This document shows positions 1 through 19,808 of a DNA stretch of 43,793 nt, in pieces. Where the stretch lies: IMG/VR virus record IMGVR_UViG_3300037445_000034, positions 1-43,793 of that record; one strand, given 5' to 3'. The position numbers and the translations under genes were made by a program. Under the pieces are notes generated by a model, which saw nothing but the letters and a program-made list of their open reading frames with translations, was not told where the DNA came from and ran no database searches. Within the stretch, counting starts at the first letter, position 1; each line of letters opens with the position of its first letter. Source of the DNA: a virus (Duplodnaviria; Caudoviricetes).

Positions 1-2
1 AG

Positions 3-227
3 ACGCGCACGCACGGCTGTCACTGGCCGGGCTGCGAGCGCCAGTGTCCGCCCGCGATGTGGGGCTGCAAGGAGCACTGGTTCAAGCTGCCGAAGTACCT
101 GCGCGACAAGATCTGGCGCGAGTACCGAGCTGGGCAAGAGAAGACGCTGACGCCGAGCCGCGCGTATCTCGACGTCGCGCACGAAGTCGAAGCGTGGATC
201 ATCGAACACGAGGGTCGCCGTGGTTGA
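3..227 (+). CDS. 5'-truncated small Cys/His phage protein
   Basis: Frame 3 is open from the window edge: HGCHWPGCERQCPPAMWGCKEHWFKLPKYLRDKIW...; TGA at 225-227 overlaps the next start. Not in the ORF track because no start is in the window. Confidence 0.7.
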   Translation, partial: TRTHGCHWPGCERQCPPAMWGCKEHWFKLPKYLRDKIWREYRAGQEKTLTPSRAYLDVAHEVEAWIIEHEGRRG

Positions 228-873
228 TTCGCGAGTCGAAAGCTGGTTCGGCATCAGCGTCGCGCCGACGCCGAACATCGAAGGGCCGCGGTATCTCGAC
301 GCCGACAGCTTCACCGTGCGCAGGCGCGAGCTGTGGGCGTCGTGGGAGTCGCGCGATCGACGCGAGGGCTGGACGTCGCGCGAGCACGCGCTCTATCTGC
401 GCCATCATCTGCATCGGCAGCTCGAACTCGGCGCCGAGGCGATGCTGCGCACGGGCGAAGCTCGACCGTGGGCCACGCCCGACTGGCTCGTGCGCGAGAT
501 CGAGGAGCGTGCTCGCGAGATGCGCGAGTCAGGGCGCGCCGTCGTCTCGATGCCGATGCGCAGCGGCATGTCGGCGTACCACGCTGCTGTCGATCGATGG
601 ACGCAGACGTTCCTACCGCCGCCACTGATCGCGCTGCGAGATGAGTGCGACGACCTCGTTAGGCGCGGCGCCAAGTACGGGATCACGCCGAGCCTTGCGC
701 TCGACAAGTTCCAGTCGTTCTCTGACCTCGTGCACCGCGCCGAGCTCGAAGCGATGGCGCCGTCGCCGAACTTCAGGTGTGTGCTCGTGCCGTGGCGCCG
801 ACGTCGTAAGCGACGCCAGCTGAAACGCAGCGCGAGCTTCAAGGCGAAGAAGCGTGGTAGGAAGCGCCGATGA
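220..873 (+). CDS. hypothetical protein
   Basis: 217-aa ORF, phage-like codon usage, basic C-terminus, stop overlaps the next ATG (ATGA). Confidence 0.7.
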   Translation: MVDSRVESWFGISVAPTPNIEGPRYLDADSFTVRRRELWASWESRDRREGWTSREHALYLRHHLHRQLELGAEAMLRTGEARPWATPDWLVREIEERAREMRESGRAVVSMPMRSGMSAYHAAVDRWTQTFLPPPLIALRDECDDLVRRGAKYGITPSLALDKFQSFSDLVHRAELEAMAPSPNFRCVLVPWRRRRKRRQLKRSASFKAKKRGRKRR

Positions 874-1154
874 CTTCGCCGTACGACGAGAACTGGAACC
901 TGGACATCGCGGGCTCGCCGTGGTGGACGATCGCGAACGACCCGCTCGCCGACACGGTGACGTTCGTCTACAAGCCGCTGCCTCGCTCGATCGAGGGCGA
1001 CGCTACGCACGAGTGGCGCAACGATCTCGGGTCGTGGGTGACGTGCGGCAAGTGCGGCGTCGTTCGCCGCGCCGATCGCATGCACAGGCCCTGCACCGGG
1101 CACCCGCCCGTCATTTCGCCGCGCGCGCATCGCTGCAACGGCGGTCGCGCATGA
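870..1154 (+). CDS. hypothetical protein with CxxC motif
   Basis: ATGA coupling at both ends; CGKC...C. Confidence 0.6.
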   Translation: MTSPYDENWNLDIAGSPWWTIANDPLADTVTFVYKPLPRSIEGDATHEWRNDLGSWVTCGKCGVVRRADRMHRPCTGHPPVISPRAHRCNGGRA

Positions 1155-1288
1155 TGTTCTCGTGGGTCACCGACACCGTGAAGAGTCATCCACGCTGGCT
1201 CGCGTTCTGTCGAAGGCACGAGCACACGTGGTGGACGTGCGCCGAGGCCTACGCCCTCTGGATCGCGTACCGGGACGGTGCCGCGTGA
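1151..1288 (+). CDS. small hypothetical protein
   Basis: MMFSWVTDTVKSHPRWLAFC...; ATGA overlap upstream, GTGA overlap downstream. Confidence 0.55.
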   Translation: MMFSWVTDTVKSHPRWLAFCRRHEHTWWTCAEAYALWIAYRDGAA

Positions 1289-1824
1289 TCGTCGACGTCT
1301 CGCACCGCGTGTGGCTGACGATGGCGATGCACGCGCTGTGGCCGTCGTACGACACGCACAAGCTCGCCAGCGTCGCGGCGCTCGCGGTCGAAGTCGAGGG
1401 CGAGACAGGCATCCCTGCCGAGCTGCTCGTCGCGATCGCGCAGCACGAGAGCGACTTCGAGGCGCGCGCCGTGTCGTACGTCGCCGGCGGGACGCGACGC
1501 GACGTCGTGCTCCGTGACGATCAGGCGCCGTCGCGCGGGACCGTTTACGGGTATCTTCAGGCGATGTGCACCGACGCGACGTGCGCTCGCGAGCTCGACC
1601 GCGACGGCGCCATGCGAGCGGGCGCTGCCGAGATCGTCGAGTGGCTCGACACGTGCCACGGCGACATCGCGTGCGCGATGCGAGGTCACGCTGGCGGCAC
1701 ACGCTGTGCGCTCGACGCGCGTACGTGCAAGCGCGAGTGGCTGTCGTTCGCGAGCATCTTCATCGGGCGCGCGGCAGAGCTGTCGCGTCTCGAGGATTCG
1801 ACATCAACAGGAGAAATCAGATGA
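1285..1824 (+). CDS. lytic transglycosylase (SLT)-like protein
   Basis: GIPAELLVAIAQHESDFEARAVS matches the SLT catalytic E-S motif context; YGYLQ resembles the GLMQ motif; GTG start coupled to the upstream stop. Confidence 0.7.
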   Translation: MIVDVSHRVWLTMAMHALWPSYDTHKLASVAALAVEVEGETGIPAELLVAIAQHESDFEARAVSYVAGGTRRDVVLRDDQAPSRGTVYGYLQAMCTDATCARELDRDGAMRAGAAEIVEWLDTCHGDIACAMRGHAGGTRCALDARTCKREWLSFASIFIGRAAELSRLEDSTSTGEIR

Positions 1825-1916
1825 GGTGGTTCAACGCTCGTTTTTCTGAGGGCGAGGCGTTCGCGATCGGATGGGTCATCGCCGCCATCATCGGCGCGAT
1901 CGTGGGGTCGCAATGA
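1821..1916 (+). CDS. small membrane peptide
   Basis: AGGAG RBS, ATGA coupling; AFAIGWVIAAIIGAIVG is one hydrophobic helix. Confidence 0.55.
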   Translation: MRWFNARFSEGEAFAIGWVIAAIIGAIVGSQ

Positions 1917-2101
1917 CAGGCGGCGAGAAACGAGCGCGACGCAAGGTGATCGCCGAACGCATGGCGCGCATTCGTCGCAGCGAAGCACGCAAGCGCGCGT
2001 GGGACGCGAAGCGCATCGAACAGCATGACCCGATCGACGCCGACGAGGTCGAGCAAACGGGCACCGACGCGCTGCTCGACGGGTTGCCGGATGCGATTTG
2101 A
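1913..2101 (+). CDS. hypothetical protein
   Basis: ATGA-coupled start MTGGEKRARRK...; basic N-half, acidic C-half. Confidence 0.55.
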   Translation: MTGGEKRARRKVIAERMARIRRSEARKRAWDAKRIEQHDPIDADEVEQTGTDALLDGLPDAI

Positions 2102-2106
2102 AGTTC

Positions 2107-2215
2107 GCCGGGGTGGCGGAAGTCGGTAGACGCCCGCGGCATTCGTAACGCCGCGAGTCGCAAGCGCAGCGCGCGCACCCGCTTGCGAATCTTGGTTCAA
2201 CTCCAGGCCCTGGCA
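2107..2215 (+). tRNA. non-canonical tRNA or tRNA-like RNA, anticodon CGT (Thr), very long variable arm
   Basis: Acceptor GCCGGGG/CCCTGGC plus A73; D-arm TGGCGGAAGTCGGTAGACGC; anticodon arm CGCGGC-A-TTCGTAA-C-GCCGCG; variable stem TCGCAAGCG/CGCTTGCGA; T-arm CTTGG-TTCAACT-CCAGG; no encoded CCA. Confidence 0.75.
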
Positions 2216-2241
2216 CGCACGCAACAACAACGAAAGGGACG

Positions 2242-2580
2242 ATGCAGATGGCGATCACGGAACTTGATCTGGAAATCCGGGCGCTGCGCGCCCGCATCAA
2301 CCGCATTGCCGACGAGGTGAAGCTCGACGAGCGTCTTCGACTCGACGACGTCGCGCAGTCGTTCATCGAAGCGAGCCACGAGATCCGTGCAGGCGACTTC
2401 GTGCGCTTCAGCGATGGGCACGCCGCCCGGATCTTCAGCATCAACAGCGACGGGAAGTGGCACTACCTCGATCGCCACGGTCACTCGGTCGAACCGTTTC
2501 GCGTGCCTCCCGAGGAGGGCATCGAGCGGCTGTACACGATCTCCGAAGTCGCAGCCATCATCGCCAAGGTGTCGCTGTGA
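2242..2580 (+). CDS. hypothetical protein
   Basis: AAGGGA RBS; N-terminal coiled coil followed by a small beta-rich segment. Confidence 0.7.
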   Translation: MQMAITELDLEIRALRARINRIADEVKLDERLRLDDVAQSFIEASHEIRAGDFVRFSDGHAARIFSINSDGKWHYLDRHGHSVEPFRVPPEEGIERLYTISEVAAIIAKVSL

Positions 2581-3140
2581 ACGTCACCGACATCATCGTG
2601 TTCACGCACGTGAAGCAGGACGGCGACAGCTTCGCGCTGGTTTGCTACGCGCAGGTCGGCGGCAACATCGTCGCCGAGCACCGCTGCCCGATTCACGATG
2701 CGACTGATCTGCGTAGCGACGTCGCCGAGTTGTCGGCGCGCACGTTCGACGCTGCGATCGCGGTCGTGAACCGCGCGCCGGACATGACGATCAACGGCAT
2801 CAAGATCGTCAGCGATCCGAGCCTGAAGCCCGGCGAGCTGCTGTTCGTCAACGAGACGAAGAAGAAGCCGAAGGCCGTGCCGAGCGGCGCACCGGCTTAT
2901 GTCGACGTCAGGCGGCCCGAGCGAACGCTATCGGCCGCAGGTCGGCAGACGTACGAGAGGCTTCTTCGGCAGTACACGGGAAGCGACAGGGAGCGCGAGA
3001 TCGCATCGGCGCGCGACTCGTTGAGGTTTCTCGCCGAGCACCCGGGCGACCATACGAAGCGACGGCAAGAGCTACACGCACGCCTCGCCGAGCTGGGTGT
3101 GCCCGTCAAGCCTGGCGACGGTGGCGATTCGTCGCTGTAG
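2577..3140 (+). CDS. hypothetical protein
   Basis: GTGA-coupled start MNVTDIIVFTHV...; typical codon usage. Confidence 0.65.
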   Translation: MNVTDIIVFTHVKQDGDSFALVCYAQVGGNIVAEHRCPIHDATDLRSDVAELSARTFDAAIAVVNRAPDMTINGIKIVSDPSLKPGELLFVNETKKKPKAVPSGAPAYVDVRRPERTLSAAGRQTYERLLRQYTGSDREREIASARDSLRFLAEHPGDHTKRRQELHARLAELGVPVKPGDGGDSSL

Positions 3141-3158
3141 GCCGCCGTGGCGTCGTCG

Positions 3159-3167
3159 TGGCATACT
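3159..3167 (+). promoter_or_regulatory. candidate extended -10 promoter for the packaging genes
   Basis: TG-G-CATACT in the intergenic gap, followed by a GGAG RBS and ATG at 3193. Confidence 0.35.
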
Positions 3168-3192
3168 GCGTCTGACCCGGAGTAGAACGACA

Positions 3193-3771
3193 ATGGCCGC
3201 GAGGAAGGCACGGTCAGGTGGTGAAAACGAGCGTCGTCGCGTCGCAGCGAAGGAGATGCTCGAACGCCGTGCGCGCTGGATGGTCGCCGAGTGGCGCACG
3301 CGCCCAACCGATACGCCCACCGACATCATGCGGGACTGTCGCGAGCGCTTCGGTTGCGGCATCCTCGCCGCAAAGAAGTCGATGACGCGGTGTCTCGAAA
3401 TCCGGCGCGAGAACTTCCAGGCGCTCGACCTGTCGTTCTTCGTCGATCGGTACAACGATCTGTACGAGCGCGCGCTCTCGAAGGGCAACGAGAACGCCGC
3501 GCGTAAGATCCTCGACTCGATGGCGATCAACACGGGCATCGCGAAGCCGCGCCAGGTCGTCGCCGCCATCGCTGTCGGCCAGGTGAGCCCCGAGCAGCTC
3601 GCGCACGTCGGCGTGCTGTCGATGACGCCGGCGCAGCGAGACAACCGCTTGCGTGAGCTCGAGGAAAAGGCGCGCAGCGGCACCGCCGTCGTGCCCGAGG
3701 ACATCGCGCCGCCCGACGACGTGATCGACGTGGTGTCGAGCGCTGCAGGAGCGCCAGATGACGCCCCCTGA
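3193..3771 (+). CDS. putative terminase small subunit
   Basis: Helical protein with YERALSKGNENAARKILDSMAINTGI, like TerS oligomerisation helices; lies just upstream of the TerL block. Confidence 0.5.
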   Translation: MAARKARSGGENERRRVAAKEMLERRARWMVAEWRTRPTDTPTDIMRDCRERFGCGILAAKKSMTRCLEIRRENFQALDLSFFVDRYNDLYERALSKGNENAARKILDSMAINTGIAKPRQVVAAIAVGQVSPEQLAHVGVLSMTPAQRDNRLRELEEKARSGTAVVPEDIAPPDDVIDVVSSAAGAPDDAP

Positions 3772-3997
3772 CATCGTGGTGCACACGGTGAGCGTCGACG
3801 ATACGGGGATGATCTTCACCGTCGCGGCGTCGCACAGCTCGCAGAGCGTGATCGGTCGCTTCCGCATCTTCGGGCCGGCGCCGAGCATCGACGACAGCCA
3901 CGATCAGCTGCGCTTCCAAGCCTTCTGTGCGGGCGTCATGCGCATGTTCGACGAGTCGGCGTGTCCGCTCGGGCCACGCACGGAGCGGCTGCGATGA
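3758..3997 (+). CDS. hypothetical protein
   Basis: 79-aa ORF overlapping both neighbours by a few bases. Confidence 0.55.
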   Translation: MTPPDIVVHTVSVDDTGMIFTVAASHSSQSVIGRFRIFGPAPSIDDSHDQLRFQAFCAGVMRMFDESACPLGPRTERLR

Positions 3998-4350
3998 CCG
4001 AAGAGATTCGTCGGTGCCCCGAGTACCGTTGCTTGCTGCGCGAGGGCCACGTCGGCGACCACCAGACGAGCTTCGTGCACGGGCGTGACTCGGAGATCGC
4101 CTGTCGCGGCAAGCGGCGATACGGCACCGAGGCGCAGGCGCAGACGGTCGCGGCGCGATGCTACGAAGCCCGTCAGCACTGGCTGCGCGTGTACTACTGC
4201 GCCGACTGCGGCGGCTACCACCTCACGCATCGAGACGCGAAGCCGAAGCCGGGGTGGCGCGAGCCCGCGCCCTCGAAGCGCGAGACGTCCGAGCGTCGAC
4301 GTCGCGAGCAGCGCGACCGCCGTCGCAAGAACAGGTACGACGACGAATGA
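3994..4350 (+). CDS. small Zn-finger phage protein
   Basis: C-x2-KRRY...LRVYYCADCGGYHLT motif; ATGA coupling. Confidence 0.7.
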   Translation: MTEEIRRCPEYRCLLREGHVGDHQTSFVHGRDSEIACRGKRRYGTEAQAQTVAARCYEARQHWLRVYYCADCGGYHLTHRDAKPKPGWREPAPSKRETSERRRREQRDRRRKNRYDDE

Positions 4351-4871
4351 ACCCGAAGGAAGACGAAGCCCGCAACGAGTGGGGCGTGCTGATCCGTGAC
4401 ACGTACTGCACGCCGCTGTGGTTCGCCGAGCTGATGCCCGAGGTCGATCTCGACCCGGCGACGAACCCGCGCAGCCACATCCGTTCGCGCGCGCAGTACA
4501 TGGTCGAGCGGCGACAGAACGGCTTGAAGCTGCCGTGGCGCGGCATGCTCTGGCTGAACCCGCCGTACAGCAACCCCGACCCGTGGGCGCTGAAGCTGTA
4601 CGACGAGTCCAACGCCGGGCGCGTCACCGACGCCGGCATCCTCGTGAACGTCGACAGCTCGACGCTCTGGTGGCGCGCGTTCACGCACGTGTGCCGCAAC
4701 ATGCTGATGCTGACGAGGCGGGTCGCGTTCGACGCGCCTCCGGGTGTCGACCTGTCTGGCTCGCACGTCGCGCAGCGCCCGCAAGCGCTGCTCGCGACCG
4801 ACGGCTTCCGCGCGAAGTGCGAGCCCGAGCTCGACGCGCACGGCGTGTGGTGGTCGCGTGCGGCGGCCTGA
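4347..4871 (+). CDS. phage N6-adenine DNA methyltransferase (Dam-like)
   Basis: DTYCTP...DLDPAT...NGLKLPW...WLNPPYS, the motif order of short phage Dam-type MTases. Confidence 0.85.
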   Translation: MNPKEDEARNEWGVLIRDTYCTPLWFAELMPEVDLDPATNPRSHIRSRAQYMVERRQNGLKLPWRGMLWLNPPYSNPDPWALKLYDESNAGRVTDAGILVNVDSSTLWWRAFTHVCRNMLMLTRRVAFDAPPGVDLSGSHVAQRPQALLATDGFRAKCEPELDAHGVWWSRAAA

Positions 4872-13254: not shown

Positions 13255-13273
13255 GCGTTTCGGCGGCGTTCGC

Positions 13274-13294
13274 GTCGCGCAGTACTCGAGCGAC
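13274..13294. repeat. GTCGC-N11-GCGAC dyad copy
   Basis: GTCGC gcagtactcga GCGAC-AC in the gap upstream of the MCP gene. Confidence 0.7.
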
Positions 13295-13359
13295 ACGAAC
13301 GGCCCTTGCGCGAGCGATCGCGTGCTGATACTGCTGTTGTGGTAGCTGACTGAAGGCAC

Positions 13360-13485
13360 GGACCCCACTCGCAAGAGTGGCTCGCCTCCCCGGGCGTCAT
13401 CGGGTGTCGCCGACGCAGCGTCACGCGTCAGAGCTGAACACCCTCTCCCGCGCGTGCAGCGCGGCGCACCCGTCAAGGCAGGTCC
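13360..13485 (+). promoter_or_regulatory. structured 5' leader of the major capsid gene
   Basis: GGACC/GGTCC closing stem abutting the ATG; CCACTC-GCAA-GAGTGG; GGGTGT/ACACCC; CCGCGC/GCGCGG. Confidence 0.45.
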
Positions 13486-14550
13486 ATGACCGACATCAAC
13501 GAAGCACTGCTCGACCCCGCTCTCGAACAGTTCATCCGTCAGCAGATCGCGAAGCAGTACAACCGCAGCTCGGTGACGACCGACCTGTTCCGCAAGGAAC
13601 CGGGCATGGGCAAGAACGTCGCCTGGGACATCAGCGTGGGCACGGGCACCGGCCAGGTGTTCGATGACGGCGCCGACGTCGGCACGTTCAACACCGATAC
13701 GCAGGTGCTCGCGACGCTGGCGTGGGGCGAGTACGGCGATGCGTTCAAGCTGACGGGTCGTGCCGAGGACGTCGCGCAGTTCAGCAAGACCGAGCTCGGT
13801 CTCGCGTTCTTCTTCAAGATGAACGAGGCGCGCGAGCGCGCCGCGAAGAAGGTGAACGACGACATCTGGACCGGCGACGGTTCGGGCTCGCCGCAGAAGA
13901 TCTTCGGCATCACGGCGGCGAACGGTCCGATGGACACGGCCGGCAGCTACGGCGGCCAGTCGCGCATCACCTACCCGCAGTGGCAGGGCACGAAGCTCGG
14001 CAACGGTGGCATCCCGCGTCCGATCACGCTCGACACGATCGAGTACGGGTTGGAGCAGTCGTTCACGGCGTCGGGCAAGAACCCGACGTACGGCGTCACG
14101 ACGCCGAACGTGTGGCGCTTGCTGTGCACGCTCGTCGACGACGACCGTCGCATCAACCAGGACACCCAGATCCGCGGCGAGGCGATCGGCGTCAAGCTCG
14201 GTTACAACGCCGTCGAGGTCAACGGCATCCCGGTGTTCCGCGACATCTCGGTGCCGAAGGGAAACCTCGTCTTCTTCCACGAGCCGTCGTGGTGCGTCGA
14301 GTTCCTGCCGGTCGCGCCGTCGCGCATCGCGCGCGGCAAGATCATGGCGACCACGCCGCTCGCGGGTCTCCCGCAGGAGCAGCTGATGGTCGGCGCGCCC
14401 GTCGGTGGCCCGCTCGTCGCGAACATCATCGCGCTGTCGAGCCTCGGCAACTACGAGCGCTGGCAGCTCGTCTCGACGCTGCAGCTGCGCAACACGCGGC
14501 CGAACGCGTCGCTGTGGATCACCGACATCCTCGCGCGCACTGAGTCGTAA
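13486..14550 (+). CDS. major capsid protein (HK97 fold expected)
   Basis: 354 aa after the scaffold; NDDIWTGDGSGSPQKIFGI and LGYNAVEVNGIPVFRD motifs; strongly biased codons. Confidence 0.88.
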   Translation: MTDINEALLDPALEQFIRQQIAKQYNRSSVTTDLFRKEPGMGKNVAWDISVGTGTGQVFDDGADVGTFNTDTQVLATLAWGEYGDAFKLTGRAEDVAQFSKTELGLAFFFKMNEARERAAKKVNDDIWTGDGSGSPQKIFGITAANGPMDTAGSYGGQSRITYPQWQGTKLGNGGIPRPITLDTIEYGLEQSFTASGKNPTYGVTTPNVWRLLCTLVDDDRRINQDTQIRGEAIGVKLGYNAVEVNGIPVFRDISVPKGNLVFFHEPSWCVEFLPVAPSRIARGKIMATTPLAGLPQEQLMVGAPVGGPLVANIIALSSLGNYERWQLVSTLQLRNTRPNASLWITDILARTES

Positions 14551-16554: not shown

Positions 16555-17067
16555 ATGCCGACGATCGTCATCCAGCCCAAGGACCTCGCGCGCGCCCTCA
16601 AGCGCGAGGGCCAGCGCGTGCCGAACGCCGCGAAGGCGGCGGCGTACGCAGCTGCGCAGCGCTTGCGCGCTCGCATCATGGAAGAGATCGACAAGCGCAA
16701 GATCACCGACATGGGCATCCTGAAGAACTCGATCAGGGTGGTGAAGCAAAACCGCGACGCGCAGGGGCGCTTTCTTCCGGGCGGCTCTGTCGCTGTGCGC
16801 GCTGACGCCCCGCACGCCGGCATCGTCGAGCTCGGCGCGCGACCGCACCCGGTGAGCCCCGAAGGCCGCATGGCGATCGCCCGCTGGGCCGCGCGCAAGC
16901 TCGGGCTGTCCGACAAGGAAGCCGAGCGCGCGAGTTGGGCGATCGCGCAGAAGATTCGCGAACGGGGACAGCCGCCGACGTACGTGTTCGCGAGCTGCGT
17001 CCCCGACGGCCTGAAGTTCTTCGGCGAGGAGATCGTCCGCATCCTCAACAGCAGGAGCGCCGCGTGA
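16555..17067 (+). CDS. HK97 gp10-like tail completion / neck protein
   Basis: DMGILKNSI...DAPHAGIVELGARPH...IAQKIRERG motifs. Confidence 0.7.
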   Translation: MPTIVIQPKDLARALKREGQRVPNAAKAAAYAAAQRLRARIMEEIDKRKITDMGILKNSIRVVKQNRDAQGRFLPGGSVAVRADAPHAGIVELGARPHPVSPEGRMAIARWAARKLGLSDKEAERASWAIAQKIRERGQPPTYVFASCVPDGLKFFGEEIVRILNSRSAA

Positions 17068-18236: not shown

Positions 18237-19808
18237 ATGCCCCAGCCGCGTTTTCAGGTCAGCACTTCCGACTCGTTCGGCGCCCCCGGCGTCTACATTC
18301 AGCAGAAGGCCGTAACGCCTCCGCTGCGCGGCATCTTCCGCGGCACGACGGGCTTCGTCGGCGAGTGCGTGCGCGGCCCCGCGAACAAGCTCGTTTACTG
18401 CCCGACGATCGACCGCTTCCTCGACGTGTTCGGCGGGCGCGACTACGGCATCAACGGCGGCACGCTGCGCGGCAAGGTCTGGTGGGCGCTGCAGGGCAAG
18501 CGCTTCGGCAAGTTCTACGTCGTGCGCACGATCGCGAGCGACGCGACGACGTCGAGCTACAACGCCGAGACGGCGGCGGGCGGCGGCGGCACCGAGGTGC
18601 TGCACATCGCGGCGCGCTCGCCGGGTCTGCACGGCCAGGACATCAAGGTGAAGGTCGTGAACGCGTCGAACGGCGTCACGACGTCGTTCAACCTGTCGGT
18701 GAAGCTGTACGACCGCACGTGGCTGTTCGAGAACATTTCGATCAACGGCACCGACGACAACACCGCCGTGGTGGTTGGCAGCGACGACGCGACGCCGATC
18801 GTGCTGACGAAGCTCGCGGGCGGTCGCCCGATCAACAACGCGGCGAACACCGACGGCGCCGACGCGAACGGGTACATCCCGCTCGGCGCCACGATCGCGA
18901 GCTACACGACGGTCGCCGGCAGCGATGGCACGATCGCCGACGCCGACTTCACCGGCACCGGGAAGACGATGGAGACGCTGCACGCCGCGCGCGGCATCGA
19001 CAGCAAGCTCGTCGCCGGTCGCAGCAACAGCGCGATCAAGACCAAGATCTTTGCGCTCGCGCCTACCGCGAACCTCTCGCTGTGGCTGATCTGCCCCGAC
19101 AGCGAGACCGTCACCGACACCACGTGGGTGACCGAGCTCGCGGGCTATCGCCACCGCGCGATCGTGCCCGTGTTCAACCACCCGTACTACATCGACGGCG
19201 TGACGACCATCGAGACCGTCAACGAGCCCCACGCGCATCTCGCGGGCGTGCTCTCGCAGATCGAGTACGACATCCACCCGGGCGTCGCCGACACCGCCGA
19301 GCTGAACACGGAGATCACGCGTCTCGCGTTCGAGCTGCAGGACGGCCAGCGCGACAACCTCGACCTCGGCGGCTCGACGTACATGAACCGCGACGTGGAC
19401 CCGTCGAACAATGACGTGTTCCTGTTCGGCAACGGGCGCACCGCCGACCTGACGCTGAACAACTCGCAGGTGGACGGCGAGCGCTCGAAGATGTACCTGA
19501 TCATGGGCCTCGCGACGCGCATGCGCGGCGACGAAAAGAAGCCCAACACGCCCACGGCGCGCGCGAAGCGCAAGGGCGCCTTCGAAGGCTGGCTCACCGA
19601 GCTGGCGGACGCCGAGCGCTTCGTCGACAAGGACGATCAGGGCAATCCGCAGTTCACGGTCGTCAACAACGATTCGGTGAACACCGCGACCGACCGCAAG
19701 AACGGCATCCAGCGCGATCTCGTGCGCGTCGCGCTGATCCCGAAGAACCTCTACCTGCAGCTGCAGATCGAGGCCGGCACGAGCGTCGTGATCACCGATC
19801 AGGGCTAG
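18237..19808 (+). CDS. contractile tail sheath protein
   Basis: APGVYIQ, GFVGECVRGP, ARSPGLHGQDIKV, NNDSVNT...NG motifs. Confidence 0.92.
   Translation: MPQPRFQVSTSDSFGAPGVYIQQKAVTPPLRGIFRGTTGFVGECVRGPANKLVYCPTIDRFLDVFGGRDYGINGGTLRGKVWWALQGKRFGKFYVVRTIASDATTSSYNAETAAGGGGTEVLHIAARSPGLHGQDIKVKVVNASNGVTTSFNLSVKLYDRTWLFENISINGTDDNTAVVVGSDDATPIVLTKLAGGRPINNAANTDGADANGYIPLGATIASYTTVAGSDGTIADADFTGTGKTMETLHAARGIDSKLVAGRSNSAIKTKIFALAPTANLSLWLICPDSETVTDTTWVTELAGYRHRAIVPVFNHPYYIDGVTTIETVNEPHAHLAGVLSQIEYDIHPGVADTAELNTEITRLAFELQDGQRDNLDLGGSTYMNRDVDPSNNDVFLFGNGRTADLTLNNSQVDGERSKMYLIMGLATRMRGDEKKPNTPTARAKRKGAFEGWLTELADAERFVDKDDQGNPQFTVVNNDSVNTATDRKNGIQRDLVRVALIPKNLYLQLQIEAGTSVVITDQG

Follow-up and report, generated by a model that had tools for sequence, protein, structure and literature searches.

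Which function can be assigned to a phage gene that is built like a tRNA-Leu and displays the anticodon loop of a tRNA-Thr? We examined this question for a 109-nt element in the window, by which we mean the whole stretch of 43,793 nt that was analyzed. Why phages carry tRNAs is an open problem, and so is the role of T4 rnaC and other tRNA-like RNAs of unusual size in phages. Here body identity (Leu) and loop identity (Thr) are split within one RNA. Three functions had been proposed for it from the letters alone: a tRNA-Thr remodelled to evade host anticodon nucleases, a Leu-charged tRNA that misreads ACG, and a tRNA-mimic decoy. As described below, the first two readings are weakened, whereas the third is the best fit, although still a hypothesis.

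The window, a contig of 43.8 kb with 68% G+C, belongs to a tailed phage; its plus strand encodes the terminase, portal, capsid and baseplate J proteins. The element lies among small genes of unknown function upstream of the terminase and occupies an intergenic gap of 140 nt (the median gap of the contig is 9 nt). It starts 5 nt past the preceding stop codon and ends 26 nt ahead of the next start. An A/C-rich spacer, followed by a purine-rich stretch resembling a ribosome-binding site, leads to the downstream gene. The product of that gene was modelled as a helix plus a small beta barrel (pLDDT 87.8), with no significant fold match, and no tRNA-related function was found among the neighbouring proteins. 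A gene for a Dam-family adenine methyltransferase (4347-4871) is located immediately upstream of the gene for the terminase large subunit. The contig was present in only one of the listed runs, a soil metagenome that is probably its source. This run shows no alternative letters at the element, which is not independent support. None of the listed datasets containing the contig is an RNA run.

To detect the element, several methods were used with different outcomes. ARAGORN at its default threshold and Rfam made no call over the element. A covariance model trained on 25 other Leu or long-arm tRNAs, with the element excluded, recovered it with the score given in Table 1; the next match in the window scored 15.7 bits. 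All six frames across the element were scored as non-coding. The folding energy alone was not significant (z -1.49; 13 of 200 shuffles were equally good), and a promoter scan of positions 1-4000 returned 0 sites. Four host-class Leu genes that were inspected likewise lack an encoded CCA. The element is a real, intact, unannotated tRNA-like gene, and its anatomy as first described (7/5 cloverleaf, arms, A73, length) was borne out by the sequence parse, the fold and the covariance model. We consider it very probably a maintained RNA gene.

Table 1. Features of the tRNA-like element and its surroundings (positions in the window).
Feature	Position	Strand	Remarks
Whole tRNA-shaped RNA gene	2107-2215	+	109 nt; no encoded CCA; covariance model 45.4 bits, E 3.6e-10; cloverleaf is the minimum-energy fold
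Acceptor 5' strand (G1, C2, C3)	2107-2113	+	Pairs with 2208-2214; pair probabilities 0.98-1.0
Leu-type D arm	2116-2133	+	A14, A15, G18, G19, A20a; 3-bp stem; one extra loop base
Anticodon-like arm	2135-2155	+	6 Watson-Crick (G-C) pairs plus A.C closing the loop; two positions over canonical
Loop TTCGTAA, anticodon CGU at 2144-2146	2142-2148	+	Thr, reads ACG; once in the window (both strands counted)
Variable region	2156-2190	+	35 nt; perfect 9-bp stem 2158-2166/2180-2188; 13-nt loop; U48 at 2190
T arm	2191-2207	+	U54, U55, C56, A58
Acceptor 3' strand and discriminator	2208-2215	+	A73 at 2215; A73 in 76/76 Leu and 5/27 Thr tRNAs
Upstream small ORF, function unknown	1913-2101	+	Weak coding score; stop 5 nt before the RNA
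Downstream conserved hypothetical gene	2242-2580	+	11 homologues at 44-62%
ACG codon 184, major capsid protein	14035-14037	+	Leu column: 49/60 best-listed homologues; unambiguous alignment

Several other identities were considered and rejected. ARAGORN at a relaxed threshold called a tRNA-Leu(CAA) with an 18-nt intron, which is noise among 137 low-grade calls. A group I intron remnant, or a tRNA-Leu(UAA) bearing a group I intron, found no Rfam match. An integration-site chimera was dismissed, as the acceptor strands are fully paired and an integrase is annotated nowhere in the window. A tmRNA carries G3.U70, which is absent from the element. A tRNA-Sec was also considered and rejected.

The individual arms show where the element departs from an ordinary tRNA-Leu (Table 1). 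The acceptor stem has 7 pairs, one of which is G4.U69, and its 5' strand is identical to that of two other Leu-body RNAs, L392 and L294. Five bases precede G18G19, as in 4 of 76 Leu tRNAs. The D stem and the anticodon loop are separated by 8 bases instead of the normal 6. Among 58 distinct cloverleafs with a Leu D arm that were parsed from the loci, the anticodon stem has 5 positions in 52, six in 5 and seven in the element alone. The earlier description of an anticodon stem about 2 bp too long with an A-C mismatch was therefore correct, the stem having 7 positions and an A.C closing pair. The same holds for the variable region, its perfect stem and its loop. Compared with this region, that of 41 ordinary parsed Leu tRNAs measures 7-21 nt and that of 5 phage Leu tRNAs 31-37 nt. 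A spanning 9-bp stem was obtained in 1.5e-4 of 200,000 shuffles of the variable region. When the middle was shuffled 20,000 times, a stem closed by a canonical loop and directly following the D arm appeared in 0.6% of cases, and in 0.09% with at least 6 pairs. Both tests were post hoc. No pair is broken in the acceptor, D, variable or T stems, and the tertiary bases are all intact.

To compare the body with those of known isotypes, we scored the shell against profiles built from ARAGORN-called tRNAs in the loci examined, the Leu reference set being enriched by our own D-arm patterns. A leave-one-out run assigned 67 of the 76 Leu tRNAs correctly, and 22 of the 27 Thr tRNAs. The element scored -55.3 for Leu, -67.7 for Met, -76.0 for Ser and -80.3 for Thr. 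Leu exceeds Thr by 25 bits, and the Leu score falls within the range of that isotype (median -43.3, 10th percentile -65.1). According to passages of PMC9976931, the E. coli LeuRS requires A73, A15-U48, G18G19, A20a and U54:A58, and still charges variants without the anticodon and variable arms. Every one of these determinants is present in the element. The Leu-type body of the sequence-only reading is thus upheld by the shell score and by the complete determinants, and the element is predicted to be chargeable with leucine, which we consider likely. It differs from a class II tRNA-Leu, which has a Leu anticodon on a 5-bp stem, in its CGU and its 7-position stem.

The loop is that of a tRNA-Thr. 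G35 and U36 stand in a 7-nt YU-NNN-RA loop, as in tRNA-Thr(CGU), and the class I short variable loop and 5-bp stem of that tRNA are absent. The Thr(CGU) loop with G35/U36 that had been noted at first is canonical. It matches the loop of all 11 ARAGORN-called tRNA(CGU), 9 of which came from a pattern that forces this loop. Chromosomal Thr(CGU) matches numbered 52, from 51 of 81 host-class genomes; T32 was found in 51 of them, position 32 being the sole free loop position in the pattern, and A31.C39 as in the element was found in 1. The sequence-only reading had also counted C2-G71 as Thr identity. This could not be maintained: G1-C72 and C2-G71 are present in the element but common to most Leu tRNAs, and C2-G71 is not a Thr signature because C2 occurs in 62 and G71 in 63 of the 76 Leu tRNAs.

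Among the contigs compared, the closest relative of the phage was L284, a contig in a Deltaproteobacteria MAG with the same gene order (terminase 51%, capsid 62%). We infer a myxobacterial host for the phage, because one sample of genomes from a single class contained both the L284 genome and a Labilithrix genome. At the syntenic site of L284, the interval between the transglycosylase and terminase genes, there is no tRNA shell. This absence says little, because the small genes of that region also differ between the two phages. Right after its capsid gene, L284 carries a class I-type tRNA shell at 18257-18339 on the plus strand (U73; 24.8 bits). The anticodon arm of this shell forms an elongated hairpin with a bulge and lacks a 7-nt loop. 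L284 also has a tRNA-Met at 16894-16968, ahead of the capsid gene. The capsid gene of the window is preceded by a 231-nt non-coding gap (13255-13485) without a tRNA, whereas the matching interval of L284 has the tRNA-Met.

Whether a leucylated RNA with this anticodon could be tolerated depends on the meaning of ACG in the phage. ACG accounts for 581 of 12,618 codons (4.6%), which makes it the 4th commonest codon, and for about 65-67% of the Thr codons; the latter share is 60% in L284 and 49% in host-class flanking genes. The earlier statement that ACG is common holds. The preference for ACG belongs to a bias towards NCG codons throughout the genome, which also affects Ala, Pro and Ser and is found in L284 as well, without an RNA at the syntenic site. 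In the terminase, 6 of 14 ACG codons fall in columns of at least 70% Thr among 39 homologues, two of them in columns with Thr in 39/39, and none falls in such a Leu column. The gene downstream of the element has an ACG at a position where all 11 homologues retain Thr. The phage thus uses ACG for Thr. Since ACG stands at invariant Thr of the terminase, a genome-wide recoding of ACG to Leu is unlikely.

A milder form of misreading would be a Leu-charged tRNA that reads ACG inefficiently, so that ACG becomes ambiguous (Thr/Leu) late in infection, in the manner of nev-tRNAs or mis-decoding allo-tRNAs. The complete LeuRS determinants and the canonical loop are consistent with it, as are the sister RNAs with 5-bp stems described below. 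It is also in line with passages of PMC3333845, which describe nev-tRNAs as Leu-derived, leucylated and decoding GGG as Leu in vitro; in those of PMC4300185, however, their mistranslation in vivo was not detectable. The capsid gene offers one candidate site, codon 184, where the protein of L284 also has Leu. At codon 31, likewise ACG, Leu is found in 32 of the 60 best-listed homologues and Thr in L284. Codon 184 is not significant, because the capsid protein deviates from 6 of 12 Leu columns (codon 184 and 5 others; 13 of 68 conserved columns in total), and one ACG among them is unremarkable. Over the 60 best of the 150 capsid homologues listed, Leu makes up 11% of the cells aligned with ACG and 7% of those aligned with ACC. 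In pairwise alignments Leu stood opposite 7 of 148 ACG and 4 of 63 ACC codons, so that ACG is not above ACC. The abundance of ACG and the stem, two positions over-long, speak against this reading too. It is weakened because ACG encodes conserved Thr, and we regard it as improbable.

The opposite assignment is that of a working, nuclease-resistant tRNA-Thr(CGU). ThrRS would recognize the uppermost acceptor pairs together with G35 and U36, LeuRS would be blocked by the giant arm, and the altered stem would escape cleavage. The bases concerned (G1-C72, C2-G71, G35, U36) are present, A31.C39 has its one precedent among the chromosomal tRNA-Thr(CGU), and the share of ACG among Thr codons is higher in the phage than in the host-class flanks. 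According to passages of PMC12445682, the toxicity of P2-OLD is relieved by phage tRNA-Thr with altered stems, which act by replacement; passages of PMC12409363 report that a change of U39 abolishes the cleavage of tRNA-Lys by AriB. However, the body is 25 bits nearer to Leu. Thr tRNAs mostly carry G15/C48 and U73, in contrast to A15/U48 and A73 in the element, and no LeuRS determinant is lost. The known resistant phage tRNAs, as far as passages of PMC12445682 describe them, have shorter stems and not longer ones. A remodelled tRNA-Thr is weakened because the LeuRS determinants are intact and the stem is over-long. In our view this is an improbable function for the element.

The sequence-only reading had also proposed a search for homologues that keep the extended arms. 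The outcome was mixed: the searches brought up several sister designs but not one direct homologue. Blastn gave only 8 short, chance-level matches in phages and 1 in plasmids, none with the anatomy of the element. A pattern of D arm plus TCGTAA matched 15 loci in IMG/VR and 13 loci in JGI metagenomes, with both arms in none. The extended-stem patterns matched 0 and 57 loci, and the canonical-stem and relaxed patterns 12 and 86, none of them with an RNA of this anatomy. Diverged homologues may escape these patterns, because the patterns are exact and require a fixed D-arm or T-loop motif. The closest terminase homologues are 63-74% identical. A scan for related phages with the single terminase sequence found none. 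Terminase profile scans yielded 160 loci, mostly 25-35% identical, in none of which a long-middle Leu shell was seen. In the probable host group, a long-middle Leu shell was found in 2 of 401 genomes, the relaxed pattern in 1 of 301 genomes (with 1 control match), and the protein family of the downstream gene in 0 of 401. The pair count on alignment A2 was rejected as evidence; its rows had been chosen for pairing, which makes the count circular.

Being a singleton in every search, the element could be the remnant of a Leu tRNA, neutral or inactivated not long ago, with hairpins that were lengthened by local inverted duplication. Its absence from the syntenic interval of L284, weak as that point is, and the modest folding z-score agree with this. 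Against it, the acceptor, D, variable and T stems are unbroken and the tertiary bases are intact. The loop, instead of decaying, became the canonical loop of another isotype. We regard a relic as improbable.

The Leu shell around a long middle is widespread in phages. We estimate about 1100 such stretches in IMG/VR (120 among the matches listed). From these, 79 distinct Leu-shell elements were parsed, which gave 64 clusters with a long middle besides the window. A73 is kept in 49 of 65 clusters. The element might then be one more phage Leu-shell RNA with a freely varying middle, in which the Thr-like loop is incidental or vestigial. The shell would act by itself, for example by providing a processing signal through which the polycistronic transcript is cut and stabilized, or by holding the variable arm like a scaffold. 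The abundance of such shells, the retention of A73 and the close fit of the gene between its neighbours favour this. Compared with the element, 63 of the 64 other clusters have no canonical loop on a stem; the single one that has equals the shuffle expectation (1.5%). The loop of the element agrees with the canonical one at every fixed position, has no second copy in the contig and sits in the centre of its arm. An antisense target for the middle was also looked for in the contig, and the longest complement was 12 nt, within a GC-rich stretch. We consider a role of the shell alone unlikely, if the least so of the alternatives.

A smaller number of sister RNAs share the full design. True cloverleafs with a giant arm carry Leu anticodons in 5 cases, Pro(UGG) in 3 and Arg(GCG) in 1; 2 weak cases were discounted. 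The Pro(UGG) RNAs are different Leu-body RNAs with a 29-34-nt variable arm (L392:2493-2592 on the plus strand, L415:2490-2592 on the minus strand and L456:2481-2578 on the plus strand). Each of them adjoins an IS1595 transposase gene, the one in L415 lies within perfect 22-nt terminal inverted repeats, and ARAGORN misses all three. In the transposases beside them, compared with 4 plasmid homologues, no CCA codon stands in a Leu-conserved column. The Arg(GCG) RNA (L393:386-479, minus strand) has a Leu body and a 25-nt arm and adjoins a fragment of an integrase arm-binding domain. All four have A15/U48, A20a and A73 like the element, but their anticodon stems have 5 bp, compared with the 7 positions of the element, and the arms have no sequence likeness. 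One could see in the element the Thr-anticodon member of a mobile Leu-chassis family (Pro, Arg, Thr), with ACG deliberately ambiguous in infection and capsid codon 184 using the Leu reading. We consider this combination very unlikely. If true, the family would be a leucine counterpart of the allo-tRNAs that is mostly missed by standard tRNA finders.

Other unusual class II-type tRNAs were observed in the loci. A chromosomal Leu-body tRNA (L368:1490-1583, minus strand), situated between housekeeping-type genes of the probable host phylum, has G73, the loop TTGTCTC and a variable hairpin of 9 bp. Leu tRNAs at L369:1493-1606 and L172:2993-3116 (both plus strand) have a short hairpin insert in the anticodon loop, possibly a mini-intron. 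Phage class II-type tRNAs with 6-bp anticodon stems were found in L430, L447, L416 and L436 (around 2480-2580), as His(GUG) with G73 and as Cys(GCA) with A73 beside a His(AUG) gene. A phage Leu shell of 63% G+C (L173/L386:774-882, plus strand) has a very long anticodon stem, a short variable arm and an encoded CCA. The tRNA-Leu genes in L139 and L008 contain long group I intron-like inserts following the first anticodon base, and the 5' insert junction mimics the Thr(CGU) loop pattern.

The reading that we rank first, tentatively, is that of a mimic: an RNA that is processed and can likely be leucylated, takes no part in decoding and serves as bait for nucleases that cut tRNA-Thr. Host tRNA enzymes would excise the RNA from the phage transcript and mature it, as suggested by its intact elbow and acceptor. 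It would then be charged with leucine, given the determinants known from E. coli. On the ribosome the RNA would probably be unable to read codons, judging from its geometry and from what misreading ACG would cost. If an RNA charged with leucine took part in decoding, the proteins of the phage itself would suffer, because ACG is so frequent and stands for Thr at conserved terminase columns. The over-long stem is the simplest feature that may prevent decoding, the block being ascribed to its two extra pairs; a direct test of such a block was not found in the literature searched. That the RNA is non-decoding seems probable to us. Finally, the displayed host-type Thr loop might draw a tRNA-Thr-cutting defence nuclease off the tRNA that reads the main Thr codon of the phage. 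This step, the Thr-directed decoy, is the weakest, and we put it forward with some reserve.

Two Toprim defence nucleases illustrate the kind of enzyme concerned. Passages of PMC12445682 and PMC12409363 describe Thr(UGU) as a target of both: P2-OLD cleaves it in the anticodon stem, and AriB cleaves it and, to a weak extent, Thr(CGU) as well. Several observations favour the decoy: the intact helices and tertiary bases, the Leu body, the canonical loop that only 1 of the 64 other Leu-shell clusters has, the tRNA shell of L284 with its elongated, loop-less anticodon arm, and tRNA-Thr being a known nuclease target. In addition, passages of PMC5389517 describe irregular tRNAs from soil that bear a Thr anticodon, are charged with His and remain unused in translation. 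Other observations count against it. In the one case tested, described in passages of PMC12445682, the rescue from P2-OLD toxicity by phage tRNA-Thr worked through replacement rather than competition, and surplus host tRNA-Thr protected little from P2-OLD. The arm of the element, numbered from the loop, has neither the CNG motif of P2-OLD at 28-30/40-42 nor the U39 of the AriB site, as these sites are given in the same passages. It is thus no obvious substrate of P2-OLD or AriB, because both published cut motifs are absent at the canonical register. The lack of a homologue in our searches, the post hoc nature of the shuffle tests, the enrichment of the Leu reference set by our own patterns and the ACG at capsid codon 184 in a Leu-conserved column are to be set on the same side.

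Known counter-defence tRNAs, in passages of PMC12445682 and PMC12409363, replace the cleaved host tRNA, whereas competition by look-alike viral tRNAs is proposed there only as a possibility. If the decoy is true, it would be a new mode of counter-defence; if misreading is true, it would be a phage-driven ambiguity of a sense codon. The element is a singleton from an uncultured phage, and the searches made around it indicate that a class of genes exists that ARAGORN and Rfam overlook.

Compared with known systems, the element combines features of several. It shares the acceptor, D and T arms, A73, A15-U48, G18G19, A20a and a long variable arm with bacterial and phage class II tRNA-Leu (Rfam RF00005), and differs from them in its Thr anticodon, a stem that is two positions longer and the 35-nt variable region. 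With bacterial tRNA-Thr(CGU) it has in common the loop TTCGTAA, G1-C72 and C2-G71. That tRNA, unlike the element, has a class I body, mostly G15/C48 and U73, and a 5-bp stem. The anticodon-less phage Leu-shell RNAs have the same shell, with acceptor, D and T arms of the Leu type enclosing a long middle, but lack the canonical loop of the element in nearly all clusters. The T4 rnaC and rnaD genes (species 1 and 2 RNAs) encode oversized stable RNAs that, in passages of PMC12685909, have no known function and lie beside tRNA genes. The likeness is an analogy only. T4 rnaC ends in a T-arm-like element, and the annotated sequences of both have no canonical anticodon arm and no Leu-type D arm.

A Leu-bodied phage tRNA with a non-Leu anticodon and a giant arm was not found described in the literature covered, mainly open-access main texts; supplements, such as that of PMC5389517, may list such RNAs. 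Passages of PMC7609411, PMC7590224, PMC13056530 and PMC13191261 do not describe the design either. Closer in principle are the nematode nev-tRNAs, which like the element have a Leu-derived class II body and an anticodon that is neither Leu nor Ser. As presented in passages of PMC3333845 and PMC4300185, they are eukaryotic nuclear tRNAs, conserved across nematodes, with Gly(CCC) or Ile(UAU) anticodons and experimentally shown charging. The element, in contrast, is a tailed-phage singleton with the anticodon for a much-used codon and an over-long stem. The allo-tRNAs and irregular polycistronic tRNAs resemble the element in their class II chassis, diverse non-cognate anticodons, longer anticodon stems and soil origin, according to passages of PMC5389517. 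The allo-tRNAs described there have an 8/4 or 9/3 branch, G73 or U73 and Ser identity, whereas the element has a 7/5 branch, A73 and Leu identity, its shell scoring far lower for Ser than for Leu. A class II body with a non-cognate anticodon is already known, and the element is a variant of that.
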